Assembly: GCA_964187785.1 (NCBI GenBank)
Contig: OZ076409.1
Location: forward strand, 49,540,001 to 49,604,000
DNA: 64,000 nucleotides
From: Amphiscolops sp. MND2022
Lineage: Eukaryota
Reading direction: 5' to 3'
Part shown: positions 6,837 to 60,200 of the stretch, in pieces
Numbering within the stretch: the stretch's first letter is position 1
Layout: each line of letters opens with the position of its first letter
Translations under genes and position numbers: made by a program
The notes under the pieces: model-generated
Seen by the model: the letters and a program-made list of their open reading frames with translations, nothing else
What the model was told of the DNA's origin: nothing
The model's database searches: none

Positions 6837-6936
6837 TGGAACCCGTTACTAGATGGACGTACGCAAAATAAACCCCCAGACCGAGAGCATCCAGCCCAGG
6901 TGACTGTTATTTAACAATGACACAACACACGATTCG

Positions 6937-8352: not shown

Positions 8353-8366
8353 AAGAAAGGGGGGGA
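8353..8366 (+). other. Polypurine tract
   Basis: Pure-purine run (AAGAAA, G-run, A) abutting the 3' LTR TG. Confidence 0.9.
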
Positions 8367-15400: not shown

Positions 15401-18400
15401 GCTTGTCAAAAACGCCCATTATAAACACAATTCAATTTGAATAGCTCAAAATGGTAGCCATTGGCAACATTCAAGCTAACAGGCTGAATGAACCAGCTAG
15501 AACTGTCCAATACCACATGCAGAAATTGTGAGAAGGATCTTTATAAACCAAAGGCTTCTCAACAAAACGAACAAAATAATTACTAGGGGGAGTGACAGAT
15601 TTCGTCCCAAACAGATTTCGTCCCACATGGAAATTTTGACAGATTTCGTCCCACACAGATATCGTCCCATTTTTTAACATTAAAACAGATTTCGTCCCAT
15701 TTTTGACAGATTTCGTCCCAAATAATTATTATAACGTAGTCAGCTATGTTCACATACCCCTAGTGCCCTAAATGCAGGAGCGAAGCGAAGCGGAGCGACG
15801 TGCCATATGGCCATGCCTCAATGTTGCTACTTGGCGAAGGGAGCGAAGCGACCGAGCCATACAACAAATATGCTAAAATCAAGTTCCATACATATTGGCT
15901 GTAACAGCACCGAATGAAGAATCACCGAATAGATTATACCGATTAGCGCTTAATTTTGTGTTAGGCATAGAATAATTTCCCATACTATTAGTAATCCGGG
16001 ACAAAATCTGTCAAAAATGGGACGAAATCTGTCAAAAATGGGACGAAATCTGTTAAAAATGGGACGAAATCTGTTTGGGACGAAATCTGTCAAAATTCGA
16101 CGTGGGACGAAATCTGTCTGGGACGAAATCTGCCACATTCATTACTAGGACATAAATAACATGTTCAGGCGAAATGAGCAGCTGAATTTGTTTGAGATTT
16201 TTTCAGCCTTTTCTACCAGAAAAAATGGTTCCCAATGTTGGCAAAAAGTTATTTTTGGACATGTCCAAAAATAACTTTTTGCCAACATTGGGAACCATTT
16301 TTTCTGGTAGAAAAGGCTGAAAAAATCTCAAACAAATTTTCAAGCGAAGTACAAAAGTTAAAATGGATGCATCCATTTTAACTTTTGTACTTCGCTTGGA
16401 AAATACTGAACATTCTTTTTTTTTTCAAAATACTTTCAGATAATTCATATTGAATACGAAAAATTGACTACTTCATCAAAGGTTCTATGCCAGGAATTTA
16501 TTAAATTGCAATTCTGGACCATATTTCCAATTTTACCTAATCAATTTTTCCATCAGTCCGTTGTTTATTAATTATATTCCACTGCTCATCTGTCAATTTT
16601 CAAAGGAAATGAAGGCACGCCTAAGTTGGCGATGAAATTCGTGAATTAATTTTAATCAAAGGGTCTTTCAGAGACGTTAAGTCATTTTGATGGTGATTTA
16701 CTTTGAAACTGGTTTTTCTATTATTAACTACAACAAGCTAATAACATCATTGAACAGCATTTTTTGCATCACATATTTTCTTTTATTTGTTTGATGTTTC
16801 AGACCTTTAAAGTATATCCCCTGCAAAACGTGGGAAGGCCAAGCAGCCGCTCAAATGAATTCCATTTGAAAGGAAAACGAAATTTGACATGTTGCAAATC
16901 GTGAATCTAATAGTCAAAGAGCCAAATAGTGATTCAGATGCAAGTAAAAACCAAATATACAAAATAAGTATCACGTCATATTAAATATATCACAACCCCC
17001 CTCTTCTCCCCTCATTTTCTGATTGGAGCTACCACCGTCGACTGAATATAACAAAACAATCGAACACCTGTTCGGTTGTTATAAAATCCGTTTTGCTTAC
17101 GTATTGATTAAGCTTTGTTGATCGGATGCATTTTAAAATACCTTCAAAAGCTATTTATTCTAATGGCTCCCTTTCAAAAATCTTAATCTCATCGATTTTC
17201 ATTCTGGCCTATTGTTTGTCAAATACTTCACGAAAGGACCTAAAAATTTCAAACCCCCTTCACTTCACTTAACTATGGCAAGTGTTTAACTTAAATTACC
17301 AGTAACAGATGCCTGCGGGCACTTAGCCAGACTTAGTGGAAGCCAAATTTATTAAAATCTGAGTTGGAAAATATCTTCTATTATATTTTATCCAGATTCA
17401 GACGACTGTCAGTGTTACTGGTGCAATAAACACGATCTGGCTGATTATCCGGAAGAAACTACCGTCGACCAAACCGGAGCTGCTCTGGACGATGCACAGA
17501 TCCGCATATCTAATTCAGGAGGACTGAGCAGCCAGCTGCTGGACCAGTCGTTTCTAGAACCAGCTCAACGACCTTATGATTGCAAACGTGCTGTCAGCCA
17601 AACTGAACCAAATTGTGCCAACCAAAATATGATCCGAGAAGAAAACGAGCCAGAGTTGCAATCCAGGCATACGGGTTCCATGCCGATGAAAGAATTAATT
17701 GATTCTGTAGACCCACCAACTGGGGATCAAATTCCAGAGGAGGAAAAAGCTGCCCCGGATGTTAGAATCCAGTCGTCTATGAGCTCGGTGACTCACATCG
17801 ATGAGCCAGTCGCAGCTCTGGAAGACTTGGAGCCATGTTTAGAAAACGATGACGCAGAGCTACAGGTCGTAGCTGAAGCAAACGAACCCGAAGTTCTAAA
17901 TGATAATGTAATCCACGAGGACGATGAACAAAATCCAGATGTTGAGAATGAGCCACTTGTTGAGAAAGAAATGAGTGAGTCAAATGATAAAGGCAATGAC
18001 AAAATATTTGATGCTGCTGAGCAAACCCATCCCGAAATCCCAAACGAGGGACAAGCTATTTTTCCTGACAGTGTTTATGAGCCTTTCGCGAGAAAGAACT
18101 TGAAGTCTAAAACTAGTGTTCAATTCACTGCCTCGCCTCCTAGTGCTGAAAAACCTGATAGAACGGTTTCTAGAAGAACAACCAGTGCTGTTAACCCAAA
18201 ATTGGTCCATAATGAATTTGAATCACCGCAAACTGCAGTTTTCAAGTACTTTTCTCGCCAAAACAGTTTTCCCGCTATCATGCAAACCTCCACATTTGAC
18301 CCAATTAACATAACATCAGAAGACCCCGAATTTGCAAAAATTTTCAAAACTGGATGTCACAATAGCCCCGAGAGAGGTCGAAGTCCGGTAGAACCTCAAG

Positions 18401-19998
18401 CAATGGCGTTGCAAACTGACGAAGTCACCAGTGTAGAAGCGTCACCAGATGTCGGTGAGCTTGAAGCTAACATTGAGAACATAGATCCTGAGGTTGCTGA
18501 GGAACCTGAGGAAGTTGAATTGGAAGAAACGGAGCAAGATGTCCTGAAAGAAGAACCAGGTCCCAGTATTTCCAATTACGAGCAACCCAGAACCCATCGC
18601 TTTACAGTACCCATAAAGTTGCCCAAAAGTCATACTGATAGTTCACCCATAGTTACAAACCATTTCTATGACGGGTCATATGTTGCGGAATCCCCACAGA
18701 ATGGACGCGCTTCTAAATCTACAGTTTTACCCGCCTTGAAATCTTTGAACGGTAAAAAGGGCAAGTCATACTCGATTGATGAGCCAAGTAGCGGGGGAGG
18801 TATTATACTCCCAAACATTGAACCCCTAAAAGCGGGCATGGAAGGACCTCGAGGAGAACTAAGAAAGCAACTTTCATTGCATAATATGGGAAGTAGCAGT
18901 CCAACAAAGCAGAAAATTGGAGCAAACCAGCGCCAGAATTCCAATAAAGAGTCATCGCCAACAAGGCCAGAAAGACCCGAAATAAGCACCATTCGAGGTC
19001 CGCACCCGAAATGGCTGGTGAATCATAACCACTTGCAGCAGAAGCGAACTAGTATTCTATCTGAAAGTTTGCCTGTAGAGGAAAAACTATTGAAGCGACA
19101 AAGATTCATGATGCGAAGTAAGAGATTCCAAGACCCGTTGAACAACAGGTTAAGCCTAGTACCAGGTTTGACTGAGAAAGAGAACTCCTCATTCCATGAA
19201 ATCAGACAGAAGTTGGGTCAAATTGAAAACAAAATTGAGCACATAATTAAACACTCCTCACATCTCTCAAGATCAATTGACAGACCCAATTCAGATAGTT
19301 TTGTGGAAACAAATCGACAACTTCTGATTCCCAGAAACCATCAAGTTTTCCTACAACAGACTTCCATGCTAAACGGAGGACATGGAGCGTTCACTCACTA
19401 CTTTGATCACTGTAAAAACAATCGCGATGAGGATTCTTCAGCCGGGGAAGGCTTTGAAGATGACAGAAAACTCAACGTCGTCAACATTGTTTTGGAAGGT
19501 GAAAACTCCCAACCAGGAACTGAGAGACACAAAAGTTATCCCTTTTCCTTTGCAATGGAGCCTGGGAATGTTCTCCATCAAATACACCAACAATATCACC
19601 ACAGATCTTTTGCACCCAGTCAGACCCACACCCCAGTGAGCCCTAACCACAAGGTACCTCTTCTCACCCGGGCCCAGCAAGAAAACGGAGCTAAGAGTTA
19701 CATCAGTGCCACGTCACACCCCTTGCACATCCGCCAGCCTACCCAAAGTCTAGGAAACTCTTCGACACCTCCAGGACCTCCTTCCACAAACGTACCCAAG
19801 GTTCGCAGGAAAGACCAAACGTATGTGAAAAGCAGTAAAATTAACAAGACGAGCAATCAGAAAGGAAAAGCGAGTTTGACGGTGAAGATCCATAATAATG
19901 ACGACAGGGCCAGCGAGACAAGCAGTGAAGGCAATCGAACCATTGACGAGACTGTTGTCTTGAGAAGCCATGGCGAAATTGAACTGTCCCCGTGGTGA
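12488..19998 (+). CDS. Probable host gene, ~922-aa low-complexity protein of unknown function; exons 12488-12653 (tentative) and 17396-19998
   Basis: 2.6-kb open frame preceded by TTTTATCCAG acceptor; upstream ATG exon ends CAG|GT in matching phase 1; Glu/Ser/Pro-rich, no recognisable domain. Confidence 0.6.
13900..15330. repeat. Dispersed repeat family (CATAGTGCCGAAAAA / GAAAGGGGGACC motifs); related pieces near 21250-21600 and 62960-63170
   Basis: Recurring degenerate motifs and A-runs; boundaries approximate. Confidence 0.45.
15588..16140. mobile_element. Foldback-type TIR element with 9-bp TSD (Mutator/Merlin-like)
   Basis: Arrays of ACAGATTTCGTCCC on the left and inverted GGGACGAAATCTGT on the right; TSD ATTACTAGG. 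Confidence 0.82.
16185..16398. repeat. Two adjacent perfect spacerless palindromes (16185-16338, 154 bp; 16341-16398, 58 bp)
   Basis: Centres GGACATGTCC and GGATGCATCC with exact arm complementarity. Confidence 0.92.

Positions 19999-32029: not shown

Positions 32030-32061
<32 letters not shown>
32030..32061. repeat. (CA)16 microsatellite at a sharp compositional junction
   Basis: Read directly from sequence. Confidence 0.95.
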
Positions 32062-32064: not shown

Positions 32065-32171
32065 GTACGAAGTAGCACTTGGTGGGTCCGTACACGAAAC
32101 GGGCATAAGGTGGGACGTACACACTTTTCCCTTGGTGGGACATACACAAAATCTTTAACTTGGCTATTAAT

Positions 32172-32805
32172 AATACTTATTGACATGCATTGGTGGGACC
32201 TTAACACAAAATCTTTTTGGCGATTTTCAGCTATCAAGAATACTTATTGACATGCATTGGTGGGACCTTAACACAAAATATTTTCAGCGATTTTCAGCTA
32301 TCAAGAATACTTATTGACATGCATTGGTGGGACCTTAACACAAAATCTTTTCAGCGATTTTCAGCTATCAAGAATACTTATTGACATGCATTGGTGGGAC
32401 CTTAACACAAAATCTTTTCAGCGATTTTCAGCTATCAAGAATACTTATTGACATGCATTGGTGGGACCTTAACACAAAATCTTTTCAGCGATTTTCAGCT
32501 ATCAAGAAAACTTATTGACATGCATTGGTGGGACTTAAACACAAAATCTTTTTGGCGATTTTCAGCTATCAAGAATACTTTTTGACATGCATTGGTGGGA
32601 CCTTAACACAAAATCTTTTCAGCGATTTTCAGCTATCAAGAATACTTATTGACATGCATTGGTGGGACCTTAACACAAAATCTTTTCAGCGATTTTCAGC
32701 TATCAAGAATACTTATTGACATGCATTGGTGGGACCTTAACACAAAATCTTTTCAGCGATTTTCAGCTATCAAGAATACTTATTGACATGCATTGGTGGG
32801 ACCTC
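32172..32805 (+). repeat. 67-bp tandem repeat, ~9.5 copies, each containing TTGGTGGGAC
   Basis: Unit AATACTTATTGACATGCATTGGTGGGACCTTAACACAAAATCTTTTCAGCGATTTTCAGCTATCAAG. Confidence 0.95.
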
Positions 32806-33309
32806 AAAACATAATTCTGTTTTCCGAATGTTATTCTTTACGAATGAAACTCTGTCATTGGAGAGAGCAAAGACACAACGAAATTGGCTGGAAATTTATT
32901 GCAGTCATTATATTGACTTTAATTATTAATTGTTCACGCATTTAATATTTTTCAATCCCTGGTGACCAGTCTTTGGGCAATTTTCAAATGGACTCAAGGT
33001 ACTGATAATCATTGGTTTTAGTCAAAGTGACAGATAAAATTTTCTCGGTAACCCCATATTTTTTGTACACCTTCTGAATAATTTTCATATACTTTACTCT
33101 TGACAGTACACAGTTAGCTAGTAACAAGTTGACTGGTAAATTAAAAATCCAAGTCATTGCAAATCTTTTATTCAGCCCAAACAACGTTGTTACAACTCAA
33201 GTCAAGTATCGTAAAACCTGGATTTGTTTGAAAAGGTAAGTTTCATACTCGAGTGAAAGTTCATATGACTTTATCCTTCAATTATTGTTATCCTGTCACT
33301 GATAACTGA

Positions 33310-36300
33310 TCATTTTCTTGCGTCACTGATGGTCATGTTCCGTATTTTATCTTTGATATCCTGCCACTTTGAAGCATGGGGATATTTTTTCATTGCCTCC
33401 AAACAAACTGCTCGGCCAGGCAGTCGTCCTTGCTTCATCTCTTCTCGGAATTGTTTCCTCAGCCTTTTTTCTTGATCCAGCGGCCATGTTCGTCGTGTAG
33501 TACCACCAGGCTTAGGCTTTTTCTTACCACCAGTAGTTTTCTTTCGATTCCTTTTGATTGTTGTATTAAATTCATCCGAAATGTCACCCGTGTCACCATC
33601 GCCTGTTCCAAGTGAGAGACTGTTTTTGCTTCCCGAGGTTGAGGCCTTGGACCTTCTCAGTGAATTTTCTGCGCCGTCACCGGATCTCGCATGATTGGTA
33701 TCGTCTTGGACTTCGGTTTCGTTATCCTTGAAAAAACAAATTCCAATTACTCAAATGAAGTCAACCTGTTTCTAACTAAACGACTTTGTTTTGGCTAAGT
33801 TACTATTTTATAATTTTAAATTCAAAAGTTTTATAGTTTAAAAGTTACAATACTCTTTGATGTTTTGAAAAGAGAGTTTTGAAAAGAAACGCGACGTGAT
33901 AGAGAATAGGCCTGCATTGCCTAGATGCATGTGTATTATGCACAATTAAGATGTGTATTGTTTCGTTGGGAGTATGATCCAAAAGAAACGCAATGTGAAG
34001 AAGAGGTTTGTATTGCTTCAGTAGAAACTTTATACGAAAATAAACGAAGATCCGAATTATCCGGTTACGAATTAAATGAAATTGATTGTACTGTTATCTG
34101 AAGTAATCAGAAGAATCAATGGTTGGCTTTATAAAAAAATAGGTAAGAAAAAATCTATTCTTTCCAGTTGATGACAGTTCCTGAATAGGTTTGAATTTCT
34201 TTTCCGCGTGCTATGTTAAAACTGGACACGAAGTTACTGATCTCTTGAAAATCAATGTTTTCCAGATTTGCCAGATGGAGCAAATAATATTGAGTTCATT
34301 GACTTTGGACGACCAAGTTCTGAAGCAATCGACTTTAGATCACATTGCGTTTCTTTTTAACCAATTCCCAATCAAATATCTTCATCTTCACAAACTAGCG
34401 TTGGATTGCATGTTATGATTATACTTATGATAATTATAACTGAAATTGAATTCCAGCATGTAATGTTTCAGTGGGTTTTTGTTTTTTTCGATAGATTATT
34501 CCCGGACCCGTAGGGGATTTTCTTTATTGCAATAGTACAAATATCAAAACCTATTTTTTTTATTCAATCCGGACTGATATTTTCAAAAACTACAAAACTA
34601 ACCGAGTCGTCCAACTCGCCATCCTCCAGTGTTGGTTGAATTGTGTCAAGGTCTTTCGAATAGGCTTCCTCGAGTTTACCGCTGTCGACCATATACAACA
34701 ATTTTGTAACTTTTGCTAGATTTACGGCATCAGTGTGCATCCTGTAATACTTGTCGTGAACCCTTAAGTCATGACCCAGAAAATCAGCAACCCAAGTCCT
34801 CTGGTGCTGTGGTAAGTTCAAAAACTGTGCTGCTGTCGCCATATACTTTCGAAGCTTCGTTGACCTGAACAAAGGTTTGTTCTCCAGCTCAAAGTCTTTA
34901 GCGAACTTGTTCAGGGCCTCAGCGCTCCGGTAATGCAGTTTTCCACCTTCTGTTTGGAAGAAGTACGTTTCATTTTTCAAGTTGTCATCATTTATCATGA
35001 TATCAATAAGTTTGAGTGTGTCCGGTGGCACCAGCACAGGGACAACTTTTCCTCCCTTACCAGGAAGTCGGAGGAGTGTGTAGACTTCTGCGAACTTTTC
35101 CTCTAGTTTTGTAAGCTTCACGAGCTCGTTATCCGCTGTCTTTGCTCGTTCACTGGCAAGACTCCGTTGTAGTATCATATCTCTTCTTTTGATTCCAGAA
35201 ACTTCACGATCACGCTTCTTGTTGAAACTAACAAGATCAGCTATCACAGTTAGTTTGAGTTCGGCATAGTTATACTTAGTCAGTTCGAGGAGTTCTCGCA
35301 CTTTTTTTCCAATGCTTTGCCGGAATTTAATGATGTCCGTAGTGGGAATAACCAGATGTATGCTCTCATTTTGCTTCTTGACCAACCTAGAAAAACACAA
35401 GGTGATTAGATTTGGGAAAGAAAAGGCTGAAAACGTTTATCAGCTAGTTTTAGGGGGCCTAAATAAAACGTGTGGAGCAACTTTTTACATTGTGGCTTCT
35501 TTTACTTGAATTGTTGAGCAAACCAGACTTAGTGGGACATAAACCCGCTCTTTTACTTGGCCTTGGTGGGACGCACACTAAGTGAGACATAAAAGGTGGG
35601 CCCGCTATAAGGACTAGAGCAAAACGACTGAAATTGGCTAAGTAACTATTTTAGACAAAGTTCCACTACGTTTCTCACACTCCGAAACTACAATTTTTTT
35701 TCAAATTTTTGCCAAAATTCGATACTTTTTGTAAATATTTGCCTCAATAGTTTTTGAATGGTTCCAACTTACTCGTATTTAGCAGGTGCGGATATTTGAG
35801 CCCATTCAGTGTCAATAATTTTCTGAAACTGTTTAGCTTGTTGAGATATCTCCTTCTTCTCCCACACGAAAGCTTGATTTTGCAGAAATGCAGCAGCTGT
35901 TTTCAGAATCGATCCCATTTTCACTTGGTAGGATTTTGCAAAATTTTTTGACACCGCTTCTTTCACTTTTGACCACATGTCTGGTCTGATTAGTTCAATC
36001 AAATATGAGCATTCCAGTTGGAGAACAAGTTTGGCCATTACTCGCATTCTGTCCCTGATCTGATTGTAGCCTTCGTCTGATTTTCGCTTGTTGAAATAAT
36101 ATTCCCCAACATACTTTATAAGGGGGTCATTTCGTATTAGTTCTGCAACTGGATCGTTTCTTAAATTGTTATAAAGGAATTCCTGGAATGGTGTGTTATG
36201 ATTTGCTTTGATTTCAAGCATCAACGCAAAGATGGCAGCTTTGATGTTTTTGTTTTTTCCTTCCTTATGGCTAGACTTGGTAACTGCCGGGCAGTCTAGT

Positions 36301-39300
36301 TTGTGCCGGTACATGGTTTTTCTCATGAAGAAGCCAAAACAATCAGGACAAGGAGCATAGTTATCAGCTGTTGGATTCTCCGTTTCCGTTGGGTCCCTGA
36401 CTACGATCAGTTTGTCAGTGAATCTGTTCGTATCTATGCATTTTTTGAAAACCGCGATGTTATATTTGTACTGGCCTTCATATGTGATCAAGCGGTATGT
36501 TTGCTCTTTCTCTTTATGAAGTTTCCTCAAATCGCGTTCAGTTGTCGCGATTTCCTTACTTCCTTCTAATTCTTCTATTTCTAGATTTATTCGCCTAAGG
36601 TTACTGACGCGGAGCTCTCTTTGATGGAATGATTGCAAATGGCGATGTAATTTGGCGACCATTGTCGCATCTTTGATATCTTCGAAAGGACAGTAAGGAC
36701 AACATTTCTTCTTTTTGTATTTACCTTCAGAGACAACAATCTGGATCTTCCTGAGATACTTTGAGTTGAATCTCCATTTTCCGGAACAATTAGCGTTGAC
36801 ATATTGTTGCATGTCGTCTTCAATGTTATCATAGCCGTCCATAGTGTTTGCAACATCATCTGGTCTTGTAGACGACGTTGAAGCTAGTGCGGTCTGATAA
36901 CTACTCTCACTGATCTGAGAAATGCCTTCTCCCAATACCACTGTCTGATTTGATGAAACTTTATTGGGTGTACTTGGCGCTCTTTCAGCTGTTGATGCAG
37001 TTTCTGTTTCTTCTTCTGAAGACAGTTCCTCGCTACCTTCATCCTCATCAACAATGTAACTTTCACCTGAAGATTCAGATGTTTCCGACGACGAATCGTC
37101 GCTGGAACTCTCGCTTGATTGTTCAGGTATGTTGCTGTGTTCTTCGGCTGAGTCAGAATCCAAATCTTCCTCAGGCTTCGGCGTTAAGTATTCGCGTCCT
37201 TTGTTGAGAATTCTCAAAGCCCTTGATGTTCCCTCAGAGAGCTCCAACTGCTTAAAAAGGGAGAATCTTATTCTTTCGGGAACAACACAGTTCCGAAAAA
37301 AAAATTTCGCTCTAAAACCACAGTGGCTTCCTTTTGGACTAAAATTGTATTGAGGTTATTTCCAGATGATGAAGCATTATAATCTACATTCGTTCACAAT
37401 GCGTTTGTTTTTACATGCAAAATTCTTTTCACATGATTAAACTTAACAATTAAAAAAAAAACTTTTACCAGCATGATTTTAAAATCCTGTGGCACTTCAA
37501 TGAATGAGGTGCATGAAAGCCATCAAATTGTTTTCACTTTGAGGTGCAAACGCAACCAAAAAAAGATTTTTCAAAAAGTCAGTAATTTCAAATCTTAAAC
37601 GGGTAATTAATGAAATTGTGCTTACCTTCTGAGGTATTATACATTCGTTTTTGGCTCCAAAAGGTGTTTTTGGTTTTCTTCCTTCTAGTTCAGTCATTTT
37701 GGCATACGATGCTTCAATGCTTCTAGTTACATTCTTCGGTTTCCGTGGTTGTTTAGAAGCTTTCGCTTCTGTGTCAGTAGTTTTGTTTTTCTCAACATTG
37801 CTAGATTGGTTTTGCGATGATTTTGTTGAGATCCTCGGTTCCGTGTCCCCGTCTTTGCGTAACGGGTTAGGAGCCTTCTCTTCTGTGTCAGTAGTTTTGT
37901 TTTTCTCATTTTTGCTAGATTTGTTTTGCGATGATTTTGTTGAGATCCTCGGTTCCGTGTCCCCGTCTTTGCGTAACGGGTTAGGAGCCTTCTCTTCTGT
38001 GTCAGTAGTTTTGTTTTTCTCAACTTTGCTAGATTGGTTTTGCGATGATTTTGTTGAGATCCTCGGTTCCGTGTCCCCGTCTTTGCGTAACGGGTTAGGA
38101 GCTTTCTCTTCTGTGTCAGTAGTTTTGTTTTTCTCAACTTTGCTAGATTGGTTTTGCGATGATTTTGTTGAGATCCTCGGTTCCGTGTCCCCGTCTTTGC
38201 GTAACGGGTTAGGAGCCTTCTCTTCTGTGTCAGTAGTTTTGTTTTTCTCAACTTTGCTAGATTGGTTTTGCGATGATTTTGTTGAGATCCTCGGTTCCGT
38301 GTCCCCGTCTTTGCGTAACGGGTTAGGAGCCTTCTCTTCTGTGTCAGTAGTTTTGTTTTTCTCAACTTTGCTAGATTGGTTTTGCGATGATTTTGTTGAG
38401 ATCCTCGGTTCCGTGTCCCCGTCTTTGCGTAACGGGTTAGGAGCTTTCTCTTCTGTGTCAGTAGTTTTGTTTTTCTCAACTTTGCTAGATTGGTTTTGCG
38501 ATGATTTTGTTGAGATCCTCGGTTCCGTGTCCCCGTCTTTGCGTAACGGGTTAGGAGCTTTCTCTTCTGTGTCAGTAGTTTTGTTTTTCTCAACTTTGCT
38601 AGATTGGTTTTGCGATGATTTTGTTGAGATCCTCGGTTCCGTGTCCCCGTCTTTGCGTAACGGGTTAGGAGCTTTCTCTTCTGTGTCAGTAGTTTTGTTT
38701 TTCTCAACTTTGCTAGATTGGTTTTGCGATGATTTTGTTGAGATCCTCGGTTCCGTGTCCCCGTCTTTGCGTAACGGGTTAGGAGCTTTCTCTTCTGTGT
38801 CAGTGGTTTTGTTTTTCTCAACTTTGCTAGACTGGTTTTGCGATGATTTTGTTGAGATCCTCGGTTCCGTGGCCCCCCGTCTCTCTTCTGTGTCAGTAGT
38901 TTTGTTTTTCTCAACTTTGCTAGATTGGTTTTGCGATGATTTTGTTGAGATCCTCGGTTCCGTGTCCCCTTCTTTGCGTAACGGGTTAAGAGCCTTCTCT
39001 TCTGTGTCAGTAGTTTTGTTTTTCTCAACTTTGCTAGATTGGTTTTGCGATGATTTTGTTGAGATCCTCAGTTCCGTGTCCCCTTCTTTGCGTAACGGGT
39101 TAAGAGTCTTCTCTTCTGTGTCAGTAGTTTTGCTTTTCTCAACTTTGCTAGATTGGTTTTGCGATGACTTTGTTGAGATCCTCTGTTCCGTGTCCCCCGC
39201 ATTGTTGTGTAATGTGTTAGGAGGTTTTTCTACTGTGTCCGCTGCGTTTTGTATCTCAATGTTGTTAGATTCGTTGCATGATTGCAATGGCACAGGCTGA

Positions 39301-40466
39301 AGTGGAATTGTGAGGTTCTTCGCACTAAGATTGGGATACAAATTGGAAACCTCTTTCACTGGAACTTCAGATTCTTTTCCTTTTCTTTGCGTTGTTGATG
39401 AAATTCTTTTTTCGGAATCACCGGGTTTTTCTTTTTCAGGTCCAGATTGTTTGAAGAGAGTTTCCAGTTTCTTCTTCCTTGTCACTGTTATGAAGGGCTC
39501 GTCCACATTACGAGATATTTTGTTTTTGGAATCAGCGGCTTCTATATTATCTATATTACTTTTGGTTCCCGGAGCTTGAGGATTTCGTCTCCATTCTGCA
39601 TGAGGAAAACCATAATCATAGCGCAACTCCTCACCTGTGAATATGAACGGATAAACAAGAATGATCAATTGAGAATTGTTTCTTTTAATTGTCTCACAAA
39701 AATGACTTCGGTGGAAACTTCGGCAATAGGCAGTGTTTTTCAATTTTCAGATGTCCCGTTAAGGCCGTGCAAAAATAAGGCCGTTTACGATACCAGAATT
39801 GGTGGGACATAGATTCCGTTTTTTACTCAGCCTTGGTGGTACCTCATACGAAACATAGTGCAAAATGCCTGGAATTTGCTACGAAACCGTTAAGGCTGTG
39901 TAAAATAATAGCCTGGTACTTCCAAGTGTGTATTACTGCAAAACCGTTCAATGTATCGTTACGCTTTGATCAACACTTGCTGGGACACTGATACCTTTTT
40001 CACTGGAACTTGGTGGGACTCACACTCAGTGCCTTAAATGGCCTTCTGTCTTGTAAAAAAAAACAAACTAACCAGACTGAATCGGGCGAGTTGCCAGGAA
40101 GATGCAATGGTTTCTACCTTGGTCATCAGTGACCTTCTTCATCCGACAGTTAGCAGCCACTGCTCTGTCCTTGTCGTTGATGAATCGAGCCATTCCTGAA
40201 TTCTTTTCGTCAGAAGTGTCAATGAATACCGCTTGTTTCCCTTCTTGCAGTTCCATCACATAGTCGAAGTTGGACGTTTTTGTTGTACTTCTCGGTCCCC
40301 AGTAAGTGAGCAAAAATTCTTTGTCGTCAAAACTTCTGTTAGCGAAAAGCCCTCACCCCGTGGCCCCGTTTGCAAACTGTACAGTTTTCACTTGGAAGCC
40401 TTCTGGGTCTGAGTAAAGAAAAGAGCTCCAGGGCTCTGCTTTCCGGGCAGCACTTCTTGTTGACAT
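33310..40466 (-). CDS. SET domain - 38-aa repeats - tyrosine recombinase - Myb-like fusion (~1692 aa); exons 40466-40073, 39634-37626, 37247-35773, 35386-34603, 33726-33310; one in-frame TGA at 40355-40353
   Basis: All four introns GT-AG with matching phases; SET motifs G(*)GLFA, MARFIND, GEELRYDYG; YR motifs FNKKR, GKGGKVVPVL, STKLRK, LGH, HDKYY; C-terminal RRTW...LPG...C...W..IK..IRN. Confidence 0.85.
34603..35386 (-). CDS. Tyrosine recombinase catalytic exon (Crypton-like)
   Basis: R (FNKKR), K (PGKGG), x-x-R (STKLRKYMAT), H (FLGHD), Y (HDKYY) in canonical order. Confidence 0.88.
37760..39200 (-). repeat. 114-bp coding tandem repeat, 13 copies (one shortened)
   Basis: DTEPRISTKSSQNQSSKVEKNKTTDTEEKAPNPLRKDG unit, near-identical copies. 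Confidence 0.95.
40073..40466 (-). CDS. SET-domain exon (SETD8/PR-Set7-like), with nonsense codon in the GxG motif
   Basis: MSTRS...ATG*GLFANRSF...FIDTSDEKNSGMARFIND...NCRMK...LATRPIQSG spliced to EELRYDYG..W. Confidence 0.8.
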
Positions 40467-41422: not shown

Positions 41423-44400
41423 TCAACGTTGTAGCCACTCCTCAATTACATCCCAATGCAAGTCGCTGACAGTTGCTGCATAGCGATACAAGAACTCTGC
41501 CCAGGGATTTTCCAGCGGAAATTCTTTACCAGTTGGTCGCTCATCAGCTTTTATGATCTGCAGCATCTCACGCATGGCGGCTTTCGTGATAGGACTCACG
41601 CGGTTTTTATTAGCCCATTCCATGTAGAGCTGCATCACTATCAAACCTGGGAAGTTTGGGAACAAGAAACGTCTTGCCAAACCTGCGTCTAGCTCCTTCT
41701 TGAAGGCTAGGGCACTCTGGTGGAGGTGGGTTTCCATAATGAAGTTACACGCATAAGCAATGCTATCAACAGGGGTGTGAACAAAGTGAATCCACTGGCT
41801 TGGTAAGAAGATAGCGTCTCCTTCTTCTACCACAATATGATAGCATGTGACATCTCGATGGAAACCGAAGAAAGTGGAGCTGAAAACAACATTAATCAAA
41901 GTTGAGAGAACTAACTTCTACTTTAAACATCGGAAATTTTCTAAGAAGTTTCAGCCCCTTGAAGGTATCTTGTAACTCGTGAAAAGCAAACCCTTTTTTG
42001 GAAATATCTTCAGTCATAACCTTCAGCTTTTAACAGTTGTTGACAACAATCACATAACCAATTACAACTTAACAATAAGGAAAAAGATCACAATTATTAA
42101 TCTAAACTGAAGTAAAAACTGAGTTTTCCTTTTTACAAACCTTTTCCATTCACTCTCTCGCCATTCGTCAAAACGCTGTTGGGCTTTCTGGGTTGGCTCC
42201 ACGATGAAAAATTCTTTCCTTCCCTTCAACAAAAAGTAAAAAACAGAAGTTCCGGTGAAATCCTGATGCCAATCCGTCTGTGCTTCCTGTTCAGTCATCA
42301 AGAGGTAATTGCTGATGCCAGCAGTGAAGTCAAACTCTTCTCGGATTGAGGGATCCATTCTTGAGGTGTAAGTATGACCCAGAGAATATTCTTTTATCAA
42401 GTTTGGAATCGAAAATGTGTGTTTCATTGTCCTCTGATGCGGACCAATGTCAAGGTCGATGATGTTCATTGGATGAAGATCTCGCTCGCGGAATGGGTCT
42501 TCATGATGCCCCAAAAAACTTGCCAAGGTCATATTGTTCTCCACTTCCTGGAGTGCTGAAAAACACACATTTACTTTCCTGCTGCAAGGGATTCCCTCAG
42601 TTATTTTACGGAAGGTACCGTGTATGGCACTAGGAACAACAAGACCAGCAAGTTTGCCCCTAGCTTGTCTCAAAACTACAGGACATGGTGTACTTCTCGT
42701 CATTCGGTTCTTGAAATCCTGGCGGTTGTTGACAGTGAAACTTTGGGTGACTGGTACTTTCCCTCGAATTAAATCCAAAAACTTTTTTGACCCAACTTTG
42801 GAACGATTGTGTGAACCCCATTTGAAGGAATCTAAATACGGCAGTTCAATTTCCGGTATCTTTTGTTTTTCTTTCAGAGCAGTCTCTTCTTCAAGAGCAA
42901 TCTCTCCTCCGGGAGCAGTCTCTTCTTCAGGAGCAGTCTCTTCTTCAGGAGCAGTCTCTTCTTCAGGAGCAGTCTCTTCTTCAGTAGCAGTCTCTTCTTC
43001 ACGAGCAGTCTCTTCACGAGCAGTCACTTCACGAGCAGTCTCTCTTTCTCTAGGAGGGGTTATTAATTCGGGGGGAAACACTTCACCAGAAGCAATTACT
43101 TCTTCAAAAGTAACTGTTTCACCGAAAAGTTCTCCTAGGGGAGGAACAGACTGTTGCCTTTCTAACTCTGGGCTAACTCTGGGTGTCCTGTCGAGAGAAG
43201 TTGTTGCAGCATCGGGTTCGGGAGAAGGTACATCATCTCCGGTTACATCAACAGGAACATCTACTGGAGTTGTAATACACGATGTGGTTCTAGCTTGCAG
43301 ACCTCTACATTGTTTATTTGTTTGTCGATGACGGAGCAAATCGAAATGTCTCGTTAGTATCTTCCCACAAGAATTGCATTCGAATGAGCCCTTCTGACGT
43401 TCTGAAACAAGTTTTAGTTGATACGTTATTAAAGACTTTCATCTATATATTTATCTGAATTTGTTTTCCCGTAGAATTTTTTAGGTTTGTGATTTGTTTA
43501 TATCACTTTAAATGCGTTTGATTCTTTCATTGGTATGAGTCTTCAATGTAGTCAATTCATCAATATCTTGATAATTCTGGCATGACTGGGTGTTAGGCCG
43601 TGCTTCAATAGTTACAATACCGTGGGGACCAAAACGCACTTGGTGGGACATGGACCTGCTTTTTTACAACATGTCACTCAATCAACCATCAGTACAAAAA
43701 ACCTATAAACGGTAATCAGTGAATACCAATAAGACTTTTTGTTCTGGTGATCATTATAAATACATATCATTTCCAGGAAACTTCTTCACTTGTTTATGCA
43801 AAGCCGGCTTAGTGGGACATAGACCCCTTTTTTAAAAGGCCTTGGTGGGACATAAAAGTTGAGAGCCGCTATGAAACATTTTTACGCCATTATAAACAGC
43901 CCCGTTATAAACAGCTGACCGTGTTTGTTCACTAAACTGTTTGAGTCGAAAAATATTTATATCTGTTTAAAAATATTTATTTAAAAATACTTATTTTTAC
44001 AACCTTGCATAGACCCCACTTTTCACTAGGCCTTGGAGGGACATAAAATGTATATTCATGTACTTCTTTATTGGATTTATTATATGATTATCAATTGTAA
44101 GTGTTTTCCACGTATTGAATGATTTTGTACTCATGTTTTTTATTTCAAACACTTTATCAGGATCTTTTCTGTTTACCAAAGCCAATCCCCCTCACAGTAA
44201 GAGCGAAAATTGTAATTTTCCCCAGAATCAACGATGAGTTTTATTCAGGTGCAGTTAGAGTTACAATAGTGTAAGAAAAGAACTGAACCCTTATTTGTGA
44301 GAAATAATTTGGACTGCATGTAAACATAGCAAGGATAAATTGAATGTCTAAGATAATGGGCATAATCGCCTTAGTTAGCAGATTCTCGTGATTATAATTT

Positions 44401-47400
44401 TATCGGTTAAAAATCTAAAACCGAAAGCATAATTCCCAATCTTTGCGAAAAATAGCTGTGTCCCACGTATTAAGATAGTAAATAAAATGTAATAGAAGAG
44501 AACCCCTTTCAAAAACTATAAAATACCAATTACCTTAATGTAAAAAAAAATGAATGGCTTCAGTAAAGGAAGAAGTGTCTGCCAAATAAATAAAAGTTCC
44601 AAATTAGGTGCCAAATGTTACAAAATTGTCCAAAGTGATGTCCCCTATGCCAATTCAGTAGTAAATACAATCAATCAAAAATGAAATTAAGAAGTTTCTT
44701 CATTATTTGCAAACTTACATTTCAAGTGCGCAACAAAATTTCAGAATGTTTGTTTATTTGATTTTCAAATAACTTGGATGATAGCAGAAATCAGAGCTAG
44801 TTTTGTTTTGGTCCAATTCTTTTTTTACAAATAAGGGTTCAGTTTATTTCTTACACTATTGTATAAATATTTTTTTATTACAAATATTATTATTAATACT
44901 ACTATTTCAATGATAATTTCACTTGACCTCTTAACTGGGGGTATTAAATTGGTGGGGGAACCAGGGGTTGGTAATTTTGTATTGCAATGCAATACAAGCC
45001 TACCAATTAATAATTTTTGTGCTAACAGAAAAGATCCCTTCATCATTTTCAAATGTCAATTATCACGTTCAAGCGCCACTTCATTCGTAACAGTGTGGTA
45101 TGAGGCGCGGCGCGGAATGTATACAAGTACTGTGTATATATATTCCAATTACTTTACTGTGAATAGGGGACTATGGCTCAGAGCAACAGCTTCCGCTTGT
45201 CAGATCACCAAAGTTAAACACTTGGCAGGCGGAGGCGTTTGATATCTGTAACATATCTGTAGATATCTATGGATAGGTCTCAGATATCAACTATATCAAC
45301 TGCTGGCTCTGAGCAAATGTCCCCTTTTTAAAAAATGTTGAAAATCATTTTTGAAATGAAACACTGTACTATTTCAATAAGCGCCAAGAATGACCAAGAA
45401 TGGTTCATTCTGTAACCGAGAAAGTGTGCAAAAAGTGCTCAACGGCGAGAAAAAAATGAAAACTCGGCAATTTATTGTACAATAAATGTATTAATTAATG
45501 TTGTTTGAAAGTTAGAGTATTTAATGAAAATGCCAGTCAAAGTAATGCATTTATTGAATGTAGGATATCCATTAATAATGTATTCTTTTAATACAAATCC
45601 CTGATCGCAACTCCATTGCTCAAAATAGCGAATTTAAAACTCAAATATCTTTAAAATTGTCAGCTACAAAAGTTTCTTAGACTTTTATCTAATTTACAAA
45701 AATGTTTGTTTGAAAATTCTGCGAGAAAAATTACAAAAGTTAGAAATACGAAAATTTGACAAAATTTCAGGATCTTTACTGGTAATCCCCCCACCACGTT
45801 AAGCGGCCAAGAGAAATTATCATTGAATAAATATTAACAACCAATGGAATTGCAGTATTTTATAGCTCTAACTGCAACTGAAACTCATCACTGATAGTGG
45901 TGGGGAATTAAACTTCCGAGCTTACTTTGGGGGAGGGGGGAAAAACAGAAAAGATACAATTTTCATCAAATTTGCACTTTTTCTTGATTTTCACAAAGTT
46001 AAAAATATTTTTGGAAAATTTTCTATCCATCGTTTGCCCCCAAGTCTCCTGCGGATGCTGATATGGTTTCATTGAAAATTTTTTCTATTTAAAATAAAAA
46101 TCGGTACTTTCCTAATGGACCGGACAATTGAAAAACCATTCCTAATAGACCGGACGCACTATATAGAGACCGTACAATCAGTTCATTGACTTAAAGACTC
46201 CGGTTTCAGGAAAGTACCTAAAAATCATCAATTCTCTAAATACAATTCAAACTTTCATTAAAATAGCAACGCGGTGTGATTTTGTGTAATTTCTTGTGAA
46301 ATAGCAACGCAGTGTGATTTTGAGCAGTTTCTTATGAAATAGCAACGCGGTGTGATTTTGAGTAATTTCATCTGAAATAGCAACGCGGTGTGATTTTCGA
46401 GTAACTTCGGTGAAATAGCAACGCGATGTGATTTTCGAGTAACTTCGGTGAAATAGCAACGCGATGTGATTTTCGACTACCTTCGGTGAAATAGCAACGC
46501 GATGTGATTTTCGAGTAATTTATTGAAATAGCAACGCGATGTGATTTTCGAGTAACTTTGTTGACAAGCAATAAGATTAAAAGCAAATTTTAGTTGTTCA
46601 TTTTCAAGGCGCTATGGCCAAATAGTTAGTGCGCTAGCTTTCGAACCATAAGGTCTTGGGTGCGATTCCCGGACAGGTAAAATATTTCCTATTTCGGAAA
46701 TAAGATCTAAATATTTTTCTTGATTTCAGTAAAATAACTTCGAGAAAAGGCCTTGCTATTTGTGTTACTGTTGTTTGCAATTAATTGTTGTCAAATATTA
46801 TTTAATTATTTCGTTCTTTTTGCCGCTTTACATTTAATAATTTGATTGCTTTGTCATCATTGTGGGTTCGAAACTTGGCCTCGAATAATCAAGTATTTAC
46901 TGCTTCTATTTTTGACTCTCAAAACGATCTATAGAGCAGCTTTTCCTATAGCTAATTTCAAACTTCGGTGAAATAGCAACGCGATGTGATTTTCGAGTAA
47001 CTTCGGTGAAATAGCAACGCGATGTGATTTTCGAGTAACTTCATTGAAATAGCAACGCGATGTGGTTTTCCCCAGTGAATTTCATTGAAATAGTAATGCG
47101 GCGTGATTTTCAGTCAATTAAAGTGAAATAGCAACGCGATGTGATTTCGAGTTTTTTCTAATGGGGGCCTATTCATACAGCAGAAAATAAAGCAGCATAA
47201 AGAAGCATCCTGATGGGAATGAATATAAAAACTATTGTTGCGTTTGCAATACGATTGAAATAATCTAGAAGGGGAGACATTTTTGTGTTGTCTTTTGTTG
47301 TTTAAGGGTTCAAAGACGCCACCAAAGACGCCACTGTACTGTATTATATTGATTTATAACATCGATATTTTAACAAGATAACAAGATATATTGAAGAAAA

Positions 47401-48995
47401 AGGAACTATTTTTAGCTCAACGTAGATCATCTAGACACTATCATGAGTCTTATATGTACTGCATTTTATATAAACCTCAGGAAAGTGCTAGTCGAAATAT
47501 GTCAAATCAAGTTTAATTTGGATATTGTTTGCTAATGGCTCCCGCGAACTTATTTCCCTTTTCCCACTTAAAAGTTTTGGATTTTCAGCGTAGTCGTTTT
47601 TTCACTGTTTTGTCAGAGGAATTATCCCAGCTTACTGATAAAGGGCCACAGTATCCCATTTAGTTTTGGTAATGGTCACGAGTTTGCTTAAATTCATTTT
47701 GGATAGAGCCATTTTACGTGTTGACCGGGATCTTAGAAGTGAAAGTCAAGTTGTTCATGCAGCGTGACAACCTTCATTTTCCAATCAATGATCACCTTTT
47801 CTTGTTCACACAAGCGTGGAACGAACCTGACTTCATAGTTTTTGGTTGAAACATTCGAAAGCTTAGATTCAATAATTGATTAATTTCCGTGAAGGTGGCA
47901 ATTTTCTGCAAACACTCTGGGGACAGATAAATTTTCCTGTGAGTGGGGTGGGGGTGGGTATTAGCAAACAAGATCCGTTAATTTATATCAATAATCAGAA
48001 ATTCTTCAATTGTAACACGACGAATTTCGTCTCGGTGCAAAACTGGGGCTATACTGTAGTGTTCATATCGTTTTCATATAGTACCAGTGCGGCGCCGAGC
48101 AACATCACCGTCCAAGTTAATAAACCACTTGACTTGAAATATTTCACTTGAAAGGAAAGTATTCGATGCCTATTCTGATTGAGTGAGACAGTACCAAGTT
48201 CATTCAGTTTTATTCTGTTATGTTTTATTTTCTTTTTCAAATATTACATTATTTTCTCACTCAAAATGCTCCTGATTTTAATTTACCCAACGTTTACGAA
48301 ACCAGAGTTGGTGGGACATAGACCCCACTTTTTACTAGGCCTTGGTGGGACGGAAATAAGGTAAAGTCACTAGTTAAAAAAATAAACTAGTAAAAATTAC
48401 ATTGTCAAGAATTCACAAGAAAAGAACTCACTGGGTTCTGGTGAATACAAGTCGGATGCCTCAATTCCTCGCTCTCTGATTTCTTGCTGACGTCTCAAAC
48501 AAGTGTTTTTTGAAAGGTGTTGCTTGAGTTTTCCAGTGCTGGCGCAAATCAGACCGCATTCAGGACAAGTACAGCGATGAATACTCAAAGTTTTCCGTTG
48601 TTGATGAGCTAAAACAGAATGAAGTTAATATCTCTAGATCTTCAAATAACATAAGATCAAAGAGCATAAAAATGGAATTAGTTCAAATTTTAAATGGCAA
48701 AGCATGAGTTACATAGAAAACACTACTTTGGGCCTCACCTATGATAGCATGAAAAAGGAAAACAATAGTCAACAAATATTCGTTTTCTTTTTGTTTGTTT
48801 CATTCGGGGTTTAAACTAAAACTTTTCCCCAAAACTTGGCTTCAAAAAAAAATTTCGAAATTTCTCATTTTGAAAATATTTTTCAAATCCAACATAATAT
48901 CTGAACTCACCAAGGCATGTAGATTGATGACGCGTGTAGAACCATTGCTTGTTGGAATCAAACTCTTTGAAGCAGTGGATACAAGTGAAGGTCAT
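41423..48995 (-). CDS. 3x C2HC zinc-finger + JmjC histone demethylase (KDM2/KDM7-like), ~659 aa; exons 48995-48911, 48608-48432, 43401-42141, 41879-41423
   Basis: TDWHQDFTGTSVFYFLLKGRKEF and LPSQWIHFVHTPVDSIAYACNF (H-x-D...H iron ligands intact); fingers CIHC..H..C, CPEC..H..C, CNSC..H..C; GTGAGT/GTGAGT/GTTTGT donors with matching phases. Confidence 0.85.
42880..43045 (-). repeat. 15/18-bp coding repeat (EEETAP) in the JmjC protein linker
   Basis: GCAGTCTCTTCTTCAGGA repeats on the + strand. Confidence 0.85.
44187..45940. mobile_element. Degenerate TIR element in JmjC intron 2; related copy at ~61039-61850
   Basis: CCCCCTCACAGTAAG...GCAGTTAGAG inverted against CTCTAACTGC...CTTACTTTGGGGG; right ~150 bp recur at 61690-61850. 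Confidence 0.6.
44264..44861. mobile_element. Tc1/mariner-like MITE with TA TSD, nested in the preceding element
   Basis: ~50-bp TIR CAATAGTGTAAGAA... / ...TTCTTACACTATTG flanked by TA; host TIR sequence resumes after it. Confidence 0.8.
46260..47152 (+). repeat. ~37-bp minisatellite (GAAATAGCAACGCGATGTGATTTTCGAGTAACTTCGGT) in two blocks, 46260-46560 and 46960-47152
   Basis: About 8 plus 5 degenerate copies separated by ~400 bp of other sequence. Confidence 0.9.
46608..46678 (+). pseudogene. tRNA-derived (SINE-like) sequence
   Basis: A-box-like TGGCCAAATAG and B-box-like GGTGCGATTCCC at tRNA spacing; acceptor stem does not pair. Confidence 0.45.
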
Positions 48996-52170: not shown

Positions 52171-52462
52171 ACCAATCAAATTCAAACTTTTATCCAATTT
52201 TTTTTCAACGTCATTTCTCATTCCATGAGTTAGTATTGCGTTGTTTTGTCGCCTAAGAAGGAAGAAGATTTCCAAGGCTTACAAAATACAATCAAATTCA
52301 TAAGTTCATAGCAACACAAAAGTATTGATATAGCTAGTTCAAACGACACTAGCGTTGCAGATTATACTGCATAGAGCTGAAAGGATTCCAAGGAAGTCTA
52401 CATTCATCAGCTGGTCAAAGAGCACATAGCAAGCCCAGTTCCGAGCTGACATCAACCCTATC

Positions 52463-52867
52463 ATGTTCAATCCCTCAGCAATGCCAATCAGGTCGTGTAT
52501 TCGTCCGATAGATGAACTGCTCTCAAATTATGCACCACCACACAGAAAAAACGTGCATTTTGCCGACTCAACCACCAATCAAACCTCTCCGACACATCCG
52601 AGAGCTTGGAGGATCAAAAGAAGCAAACCCATTCCTGAGACAACCCCAACAACCTCGCTCACTCTAATCTCTTCTCTACGGAGTGAAAATACAAAAAGGA
52701 ACAAAAAACCAGTAACAGTCAAGTTCTCTTTCATTGAAAGAGCTATACTACCAAATGGACAAGTAATGGAGTCCGTGATATGTTTCAATGCACCCAATGA
52801 ATACTGGAAACCTGGGGCTCTGGACGACGAGCCGTGTTATATATTGAACTGCCGAACAACAAGATAG
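52463..52867 (+). CDS. Hypothetical 134-aa intronless protein
   Basis: ATG in ATCATG context; GC-richer island in AT-rich flanks; upstream CCAAT near 52172. Confidence 0.45.
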   Translation: MFNPSAMPIRSCIRPIDELLSNYAPPHRKNVHFADSTTNQTSPTHPRAWRIKRSKPIPETTPTTSLTLISSLRSENTKRNKKPVTVKFSFIERAILPNGQVMESVICFNAPNEYWKPGALDDEPCYILNCRTTR

Positions 52868-53133: not shown

Positions 53134-53235
<102 letters not shown>

Positions 53236-55723: not shown

Positions 55724-55806
55724 GGGGACGGTGGTTCAGTGGTTAAGTGGGCTGGTTGTTCGGGCTTGTTCATCGCAAACCGGGGTTCGAATCCCAGACT
55801 GGGCGG
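55724..55806 (+). pseudogene. tRNA-derived SINE-like head
   Basis: A box TGGTTCAGTGG and B box GGTTCGAATCC; no convincing cloverleaf. Confidence 0.55.
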
Positions 55807-59858: not shown

Positions 59859-60200
59859 ATGCCTTGCCACAAACTATTTTTGAACTTACAGTGGGTAGTT
59901 CCACAAGAGCTCAAAAACCTCGATATTGAGGTAGTTACAATCACAAAAATATATTGGACCTTCAGAGGAAAAGTCATCAGAGTTTGTTTCTTTGGAATTC
60001 AATTCAACCGCTCTCATCCGCTACCCGTGAAAAAGACCCCAACCAAATTCAACATACACCTTCACCCTCAGTCAAAAAGTTTCAAGGACTTGTACGAAGT
60101 GCTGTGCTACCATGCTCTGGACAACAAGGATCCACTACTGGAAGAACTGCTGTGCTTTATGTCCAGCAAGGAGATTTCTTTCGAAAAACTATTTGACTAG
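59859..60200 (+). CDS. Hypothetical 113-aa intronless protein
   Basis: ATG-started, protein-like composition, GC-richer than flanks; two CATTGG boxes at ~59517-59555. Confidence 0.45.
   Translation: MPCHKLFLNLQWVVPQELKNLDIEVVTITKIYWTFRGKVIRVCFFGIQFNRSHPLPVKKTPTKFNIHLHPQSKSFKDLYEVLCYHALDNKDPLLEELLCFMSSKEISFEKLFD

Follow-up and report, generated by a model that had tools for sequence, protein, structure and literature searches.

The window, that is, the whole 64,000-nucleotide stretch of Amphiscolops sp. DNA analysed here, carries on its minus strand a gene in which a SET domain and a tyrosine recombinase (YR) share one reading frame. Its five exons (40466–40073, 39634–37626, 37247–35773, 35386–34603, and 33726–33310) join through four GT-AG introns into 5079 nt, or 1692 codons plus a stop, and the sole internal stop in the window copy is a TGA at codon 38. 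Exon 1 holds the start codon, this TGA, and most of a SETD8-like SET domain. Exon 2 supplies the end of the domain (GEELRYDYG) followed by an unconstrained linker, in which a 114-bp (38-aa) repeat occurs in variable numbers that preserve the frame; intron 1 splits the SET motif between PIQSG and EELRYDYG, as stated in the original prediction. Exon 3 encodes an acidic stretch and a region resembling a Cys/His zinc finger, as well as a family-conserved helical region presumed to be core-binding. Exon 4 encodes the recombinase catalytic domain (R1351, K1403, R1472, H1498, and Y1507), and exon 5 a spacer, a C-terminal homeodomain/Myb-like three-helix domain, and the stop codon.

The in-phase, five-exon frame proposed earlier was recovered, with support from 36 other copies that hold all five exons and from a second family. 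Canonical splice dinucleotides occur at 283 of 288 sites in the 36 copies, and because they are kept while introns diverge and exons do not, the model stands beyond chance. In the most distant subfamily, intron identity falls to 74–89%, while exons 1, 3, and 4 remain at 93–98%. Splice sites and phases are kept across three subfamilies and the second family (70% protein identity), which shares all four intron positions. The codon-38 stop is no general feature: of the 36 complete copies, 11 have no internal stop, and in intact copies the exon 2 repeat-number changes preserve the frame. With such copies available in nature, the stop-repaired one once suggested for assays is unnecessary. We predict from these gene models that SET and YR are made as one spliced protein.

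Exon 1 matched the Pfam SET family (E 1e-6), and the SET family profile lay nearest to SETD8 (E 4e-37), with the next families at 2e-26 and 4e-22 (MLL1, 4e-22). SETD8/KMT5A is thus the closest family of solved structure, in agreement with the SETD8-type assignment made at the outset. Three observations count against the interpretation favoured below: the window SET exon alone retrieved no PDB chain at E 0.001, the SAM-binding motif reads Asn-Asp family-wide where SETD8 has Asn-His, and some 10 residues are absent from the central SET segment in the window lineage. Retained in the domain are GxG, the Tyr within E-Y-x-G, and GEExxYxYG, and it is 73% identical between two families whose linkers do not align. 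SET is present in the stored sequence of 29 of the 156 top relatives, many of these sequences being partial, and because most show none, the domain may be dispensable. It is predicted to be a histone methyltransferase, and H4K20me1 as its product would follow by analogy to SETD8 only.

The catalytic R1351, K1403, R1472, H1498, and Y1507 are kept in 112, 111, 113, 111, and 108 of 115 aligned relatives, respectively. This confirms the residue set first read from the window copy, including the STKLRK that replaces HxxR. Thr occupies the usual His position of H-x-x-R (T-K-L-R) in 107 of the 115 rows, which weighs against the favoured interpretation; another His, conserved in 110/115 and located four positions ahead of the Tyr, may stand in for the tetrad His. 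An AF2 model of the recombinase exon (pLDDT 80.5) takes a tyrosine-recombinase/TopIB fold, which bears out the proposed structural check: each of the 24 best VIA rows is a protein of the DNA breaking-rejoining (YR/TopIB) fold (Z 10.0–5.3), XerH among them (Z 9.5, rmsd 5.8, 175 aligned). Two further results are unfavourable, namely that VIA places topoisomerase IB level with XerH (Z 10.0 vs 9.5) and that Foldseek gave no match to the model at E 0.001, the best being XerH at E 0.015. Exon 4 has no Pfam family at E 0.05, neither DUF3504 nor DUF3435. As for the tail, called Myb-like in the original prediction, its three-helix model lies nearest to homeodomains (best Z 8.5, rmsd 1.6, 59 aligned), Myb domains score Z 5.0–5.5, and no Pfam family matches at E 1. 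With its conserved Trp pattern, the tail is predicted to be homeodomain-like.

The gene sits at one end of a 50.8-kb multicopy element and reads outward toward that end. The element spans 32062–64000 in the window and continues to about window-equivalent position 82903 (G000:C1:49622903). Its inverted ends are a perfect 9 bp (GTGTACGAA / TTCGTACAC), and a (CA)16 target tract (32030–32061, plus strand) adjoins the left end. A subterminal 67-bp tandem array follows (32163–32815, plus strand), each unit carrying the motif GGTGGGAC, which has 45 copies in the element and none in 53 kb of flanks. The counterpart of this motif in the second family is GGTCGAAC. Exact end matches in the genome number 188 on the left and 202 on the right, with none in controls. 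We scored 146 YR matches, of which 24 reach the top score at 100% identity, and 150 SET-exon matches, 140 of them stop-free. Sequence shared among copies is 98–99.6% identical over 50 kb, and the median length of 29 hand-paired elements is 53 kb (range 25–75). More than 100 copies of about 50 kb could, by rough estimate, fill several megabases of the genome.

The copies belong to one element, fixed at both ends and targeting CACACA, that is inserted at many unrelated sites; it occurs at well over 100 CA repeats in the genome. All 27 independent left flanks match CACACA at no fewer than 4/6 (background 4.6%), 18 of them perfectly (background 0.03%), and terminal right ends are followed by RC in 19 of 19 cases. 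Empty paralogous sites with directly joined flanks were found, and filled sites have gained a few CA units. The two ends of a pair often differ, which led us to reject a fixed 2-bp CA target duplication. Rfam gave no matches in 84 kb, and ARAGORN a single relaxed tRNA-like match. The assembly contains no head-to-tail end junction, a point against the favoured interpretation. So is the mutation pattern of young copies: CpG sites account for 3 of 13 C>T changes, 17% of C/G sites lying in CpG, and this lack of a CpG-transition excess leaves DNA methylation not established as the silencing being countered. The SET–recombinase gene belongs to a giant young transposon, of which it is likely the recombinase, and is neither a host gene nor a lone gene.

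Beside it lies a JmjC cargo gene (41423–43408, minus strand; intron 42140–41880) encoding a C2H2 finger, acidic repeats, and a KDM7/PHF8-like JmjC domain. Its nearest family is KDM7A (E 6e-12), then KDM2A (1e-7); relative to KDM7A/PHF8, the closest solved structure, the C2H2 finger and acidic repeats are additions, and the stretch examined contains no PHD finger. The metal ligands H-x-D...H are intact (DWHQD and WIHFV), as is the gene in 17 of 23 complete copies, and a KDM7-type histone demethylase is predicted. Smaller genes comprise a C2H2 zinc-finger frame (48400–48624, minus strand) that shares 54% identity with a second-family frame, a RING-finger gene of about 70 aa (56889–57098, plus strand; Pfam RING), and a 113-aa frame of no known family (59859–60200, plus strand). 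For the last, the second family has a homologue at 37% identity, and ESM Atlas gave scores under 0.9 only. A RING paralogue is located beyond the window, at L042:2526-2762, and other copies contain a third. The 39-kb interior holds no frame of 150 aa or more. Among 59 interior ORFs, Pfam at E 0.01 matched nothing beyond two RING frames and a weak repeat motif, and in a selection scan of 290 interior ORFs the RING paralogue pairs were the sole open frames to stand out; a 145-aa frame at 52430 fell outside the top 30 rows.

The SET domain, the recombinase, the tail, and the JmjC gene are under purifying selection. Between copies L151 and L165, dN/dS is 0.15 for SET (p 1e-4), 0.19 for YR (p 0.002), and 0.04 for the tail (p 1e-4), against 0.9 for linkers; the SET–recombinase estimates rest on two complete copy pairs. 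The exon 2 linker gives 0.5–0.9, and the C-terminal part of exon 3 gives 0.06–0.12. JmjC constraint is only moderate (dN/dS about 0.5, p 0.0005–0.002) and speaks against the favoured interpretation.

A second family repeats the JmjC-then-SET-YR layout, so that two young families of 35–60 kb possess a common JmjC and SET-YR core. Our literature search yielded no paper describing either a SET-YR fusion or a Crypton of giant size with JmjC; Repbase Reports and DOI 10.1266/ggs.18-00024 may describe part of it. SET–recombinase proteins, mostly annotated as uncharacterized, are known from fish, amphibians, and a sea urchin, and Pfam SET is present in 18 of 37 scanned relatives. The similar animal proteins anticipated at the start do exist, many RefSeq models having both domains. 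Across 18 proteins, distances for SET correlate with those for YR (Mantel r 0.77, p 0.0005), a relation for which host phylogeny could account in part. We found no YR or JmjC relative in viral contigs, no relative in JGI metagenomes, and no match in an exon-3 word search.

Several known systems resemble the element in part. CryptonV was reportedly described by Kapitonov and Jurka in Repbase Reports in 2012. Both it and the element are animal YR DNA transposons found in microsatellites, for which the element's evidence is its CACACA-like left flanks. Some CryptonV families are microsatellite-specific, and the descriptions in the available text of PMC8869645, the basis of this comparison, mention no SET fusion, JmjC/RING cargo, or 50-kb size. 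Crypton A/F/I/S elements, according to the consulted portion of PMC3212892, have introns, lack reverse transcriptase, carry short direct repeats that are not true target duplications, and have a proposed circular intermediate. The element is likewise a YR DNA transposon with introns. It differs in its 9-bp inverted ends, where that portion gives Crypton A/F/I/S no terminal inverted repeats and 4–6 bp direct repeats or none, and in its C-terminal three-helix domain, N-terminal SET, and cargo, the animal members having no C-terminal domain in that account; CryptonA also has a DUF3504-type YR, which exon 4 does not match. Excerpts of PMC9406493 present Cryptons as simple one-gene elements whose movement is undetermined. 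Starships, giant cargo-carrying elements with a terminal YR gene and variable interior, are fungal only in the parts of PMC11162782 and PMC13465315 seen, with a DUF3435 captain as first gene and family medians of 27–97 kb, a range that includes our 53-kb median. The element similarly carries intact cargo (JmjC, RING, and other small genes) at tens of kilobases. However, its YR gene occupies the end toward which it reads, unlike the 5′ captain, and lacks DUF3435; its host has an animal-type genome and its cargo is sparse. Chromatin or DNA modifiers are also encoded by SET-carrying HarbingerS and MuDR (Phytophthora), VANDAL/VANC, and TET/JBP transposons, and are read as counter-silencing in the available sections of PMC12730594. 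Those systems have DDE-type transposases and belong to oomycetes, plants, and fungi, whereas here SET is fused to a YR and accompanied by a JmjC gene. In its workings the element resembles a CryptonV that targets microsatellites but is as large as a Starship, CryptonV being known here by description only.

Other explanations of the locus deserve weight to different degrees. The same transposon and fused protein could use SET as a weak or dead nucleosome-docking module that aids the recombinase at CA-tract chromatin and writes no mark. We regard this as unlikely, although the Asn-Asp substitution in all aligned relatives, the central deletion in the window lineage, and the replacement of SET in other relatives by a chromodomain or another chromatin-related N-terminal domain (P0053, P0030) would suit it. 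The retained motifs, the low dN/dS, and the identity of SET between families with unalignable linkers argue for catalysis instead. That SET and YR are separately transcribed neighbours whose in-phase join across intron 2 is incidental is hardly credible: the unconstrained repeat linker of exon 2 and short KMT5A-like products annotated separately in the same clusters (P0215, P0216) point that way, but intron 2 retains its donor, acceptor, and phase 0 even where its sequence has fallen to 74–87% identity, sites and phase recur in the second family, exon 2 repeat changes stay in frame in intact copies, and many RefSeq models from other animals unite the two domains in a single protein.

An integrated large DNA virus, or its remnant, with a YR integrating at repeats would share the large size, the repeat targeting, and the small RING and JmjC genes also known in large DNA viruses. 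JmjC genes are reported from endogenized giant viruses in part of PMC11244446, and endogenous nimaviruses reportedly use a YR to integrate at repeats (PMC10871703). Against this stand the short interior frames, the spliceosomal introns of the element genes, and the viral-contig scans; moreover, none of the 59 interior ORFs is a capsid, polymerase, or packaging gene, a scan that genes of small exons could escape. A viral origin is disfavoured on these grounds and is very improbable. A domesticated host gene amplified by segmental duplication would explain introns and purifying selection, and YR-derived host genes do exist (DUF3504 genes, in the portion of PMC3212892 available). Sharp common ends with unrelated flanks on many chromosomes refute it, and its probability is negligible given also the empty paralogous sites, the abundance of broken copies, and the intact catalytic residues.

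We consider it probable that the SET–recombinase is the element's transposase, which would excise it and insert it at short CA tracts, and that SET and JmjC modify chromatin to keep the element active. Because the transposase is fused to a predicted methyltransferase and a predicted demethylase is carried, the element likely rewrites its own chromatin to stay mobile. In the proposed cycle, the YR would bind the 9-bp inverted arms and the tail would putatively bind the subterminal motif repeats. The ends would then synapse, the element would leave as a circle, as in the model proposed for Cryptons, and crossover within a few CA units would insert it with no fixed target duplication. The tethered SET might monomethylate a lysine at the ends or target, with H4K20, suggested by the SETD8 analogy, a little short of an even call, and JmjC could erase repressive dimethylation, on H3K9 or H3K27 if KDM7 is a guide. 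End-sequence copies inside the element may allow it to grow and to exchange interior modules. A broader reading, to which we incline somewhat less than to its contrary, makes the element an animal counterpart of Starships at 40–60 kb, combining a methyltransferase-transposase, its own demethylase, and RING ligases in a writer-eraser counter-silencing kit, with thousands of uncharacterized animal SET-YR proteins as its transposases.

Giant YR cargo elements have been described as fungal, and here two young families share a JmjC and SET-YR core. The element offers a likely identity for many fish, amphibian, and sea urchin proteins annotated as uncharacterized or KMT5A-like, and counts of SET genes would be inflated where SET-YR transposases carry the latter name. 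With intact natural copies, exact ends, and a simple target, Crypton-type movement, a histone-marking transposase, and 50-kb delivery into CA repeats become directly testable.

The SET-YR gene (minus strand, window 40466..33310) joins a SET domain and a tyrosine recombinase (YR) in one reading frame, predicted to yield a single fused protein, and purifying selection acts on its domains. The predicted five-exon structure held, with 5079 nt after splicing, GT-AG at every intron and a SET domain split by intron 1; exon 2 contains a 114-bp tandem repeat. The window copy carries a single TGA at codon 38, which is arginine in the four other copies checked, and four further SET-exon matches outside that check bear a TGA. 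From the YR-exon and SET-exon match lists we drew 40 copies, spanning identity classes with a bias toward open YR exons. All five exons were present in 36, of which 11, spread over three subfamilies, had no internal stop, and splice dinucleotides were canonical at 283 of 288 positions across the 36 complete copies. Intron 2, lying between the SET-coding and YR-coding portions, drops to 74–87% identity with donor, acceptor and phase unchanged. Between the subfamilies of two fetched stretches, L151 and L165, dN/dS was lowest in the tail (0.04), followed by the exon-3 core (0.12), SET (0.15) and YR (0.19), and reached ~0.9 in the linkers; in a closer pair, SET changes were too few to be informative. 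Intact copies, retained splice sites and intron positions repeated in a second element family bear out the single SET+YR reading frame.

Structure prediction agrees with the proposed recombinase. The exon-4 model (pLDDT 80.5) matches the recombinase/topoisomerase-IB fold, with XerH nearest in Foldseek (E 0.015) and proteins of this fold filling all top 24 rows in VIA. ESM features placed unnamed eukaryotic clusters first, followed by phage integrase (0.91). Each of the five catalytic residues claimed (R, K, R, H, Y) is conserved in 108–113 of 115 aligned rows, and the first His of the catalytic set is replaced by Thr. A Pfam scan recovered SET in exon 1 (E 1e-6) and gave no meaningful match in exons 3–5. 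A profile built from the SET family scores best against SETD8 (E 4e-37, versus 4e-22 for MLL1), the enzyme that produces H4K20me1. The family has Asn-Asp where SETD8 has Asn-His, and ~10 central SET residues are absent in the lineage of the window gene. The tail, originally described as Myb-like, is modeled with three helices; homeodomains are nearest (Z 8.5), and Myb domains score lower.

The SET-YR gene belongs to mobile DNA, a real and young element. Within its own genome, a search with the YR exon gave 662 candidates; 146 were scored as matches, 24 of these at top score with 100% identity. The SET exon has 150 scored matches, of which 140 lack an internal stop. The sequence that copies have in common begins at window 32062, directly behind (CA)16, and extends ~18.9 kb beyond the window, a shared stretch of 50.8 kb with 98–99.6% identity. 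A pair of perfect 9-bp inverted repeats bounds the element. The left-end and right-end patterns have 188 and 202 exact matches in the genome (controls, 0); 3 of 30 left and 11 of 30 right end matches were internal copies. Manual pairing within the first 100 left and first 100 right ends listed gave 29 elements with a median length of 53 kb (range 25–75). The element contains 45 occurrences of the motif GGTGGGAC, and 53 kb of flanks contain none. Three whole copies from other subfamilies (51–60 kb) keep both ends and the two core genes and differ in their interior; exact internal end copies occur in two of them.

Other repeats were also observed in the window. A (CTA)34 tract inside the element (53134-53235) holds extra DNA in two other copies (~2.1 kb and 19 kb), which suggests an insertion hotspot. 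Of three MITE-like small inverted-repeat elements (15592-16136, 44262-44863 and 55939-56667), two lie inside the giant element. A tRNA-like stretch at ~55734-55805, detected at a relaxed threshold only and without Rfam match, is possibly a SINE head. Outside the element, positions 1-9670 hold by sequence a Gypsy-type LTR retrotransposon whose terminal repeats, spaced by 8.9 kb, are ~99% identical and whose gag/pol frames are interrupted by stops, and an 880-aa open frame without Pfam match (17356-19995, +) is probably a large host exon.

The element targets CA tracts. After removal of three internal left-end copies, CACACA matched at at least 4 of 6 positions in 27/27 left flanks (background 4.6%) and perfectly in 18 (background 0.03%); RC directly follows 19/19 terminal right ends, and RCA 17/19. 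At empty sites, which are paralogues 65–85% identical rather than true alleles, both flanks are joined around a short CA run in 10 of 11 loci for the window insertion and 9 of 9 for a second insertion. The target is intact, with a few extra CA units in the filled site. Comparison of paired ends found no target duplication of fixed length, which would be compatible with a tyrosine-recombinase crossover. In the filled site, (CA)16 stands to the left of the element (window 32030-32061) and ~16 GA units to the right (L042:8906-8940, a fetched stretch), and the empty paralogues have short runs only; in this one case, microsatellites may have lengthened at or after insertion.

A second, related family was picked up with a distant protein as query. 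It is 62–75% identical in conserved SET-YR domains, and the start and all four intron positions of its SET-YR gene match the window family. A JmjC gene again lies upstream; the end sequence, again set in (CA)n, and the repeated motif, GGTCGAAC, are particular to this family, and four copies have at least 35 kb in common at ~99%. An end of one family often lies directly against an end of the other within one CA tract (L065, L076, L083, L089, L094; G000:C1628), and thus the families insert side by side. Second-family copies (e.g., D, G000:C2 ~32815200) carry their own homologue of the 113-aa ORF, 37% identical, plus an 88%-identical copy of the window family's ORF, suggesting cargo exchange. Just outside one copy, a frame in the region of L225:8758-9204 (G000:C13 ~18033758-18034204) resembles by eye a ribosomal protein S5/S2-type fragment.

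The cargo includes a second chromatin-type gene. Upstream of SET-YR, the JmjC gene (window 41423..43408, −) combines C2H2, an acidic repeat and JmjC, with KDM7A/PHF8 nearest. KDM7 enzymes take off H3K9me2, H3K27me2 or H4K20me1. The gene is intact in 17 of 23 stretches holding both exons, with dN/dS ~0.5. Two multicopy ENA-assembly clusters (18 and 4 members) are 45–46% identical with the same domain layout, and their sequence reads through the position of the predicted intron. No frame in the 39-kb interior reaches 150 aa. The interior contains two small RING genes, along with a C2H2 frame and a 113-aa frame (59859..60200, +); for each of these two frames the second family has a homologue. A candidate 145-aa coding frame (52430-52864, +) includes an RVxF-like stretch and is open in another subfamily whose DNA is 77% identical.

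The element resembles CryptonV in its microsatellite targeting (PMC8869645) and Starships in its giant size and cargo (PMC11162782). By the Pfam scan of the SET-YR exons and the published description of Crypton A/F/I/S (PMC3212892), it lacks defining features of Starships and of these Cryptons. DDE transposons that carry SET have been described from oomycetes (PMC12730594). Our literature search, covering sources other than Repbase Reports, found no description of the SET-YR fusion or the element.

Similar uncharacterised proteins had been anticipated in other animals, and the named SET-bearing examples belong to many teleosts, poison frogs, a newt and a sea urchin, mostly under the label "uncharacterized" and often at several loci. 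A profile search returned 13,278 clusters at E 0.001. The SET exon was matched by 29 of 156 relatives compared, several being fused multi-gene models, and Pfam confirmed SET in 18 of 37 scanned, a set including 21 chosen as SET candidates. Among 18 proteins, SET distances track YR distances (r 0.77, p 0.0005), a correlation to which host phylogeny may contribute, and one relative has a chromodomain in place of SET. In the mechanism we propose, the SET domain is part of a YR transposase that moves the giant element; the element would be excised, presumably as a circle, and then cross over into CA tracts. The chromatin enzymes, with their putative activities and substrates, may act on the element's behalf.
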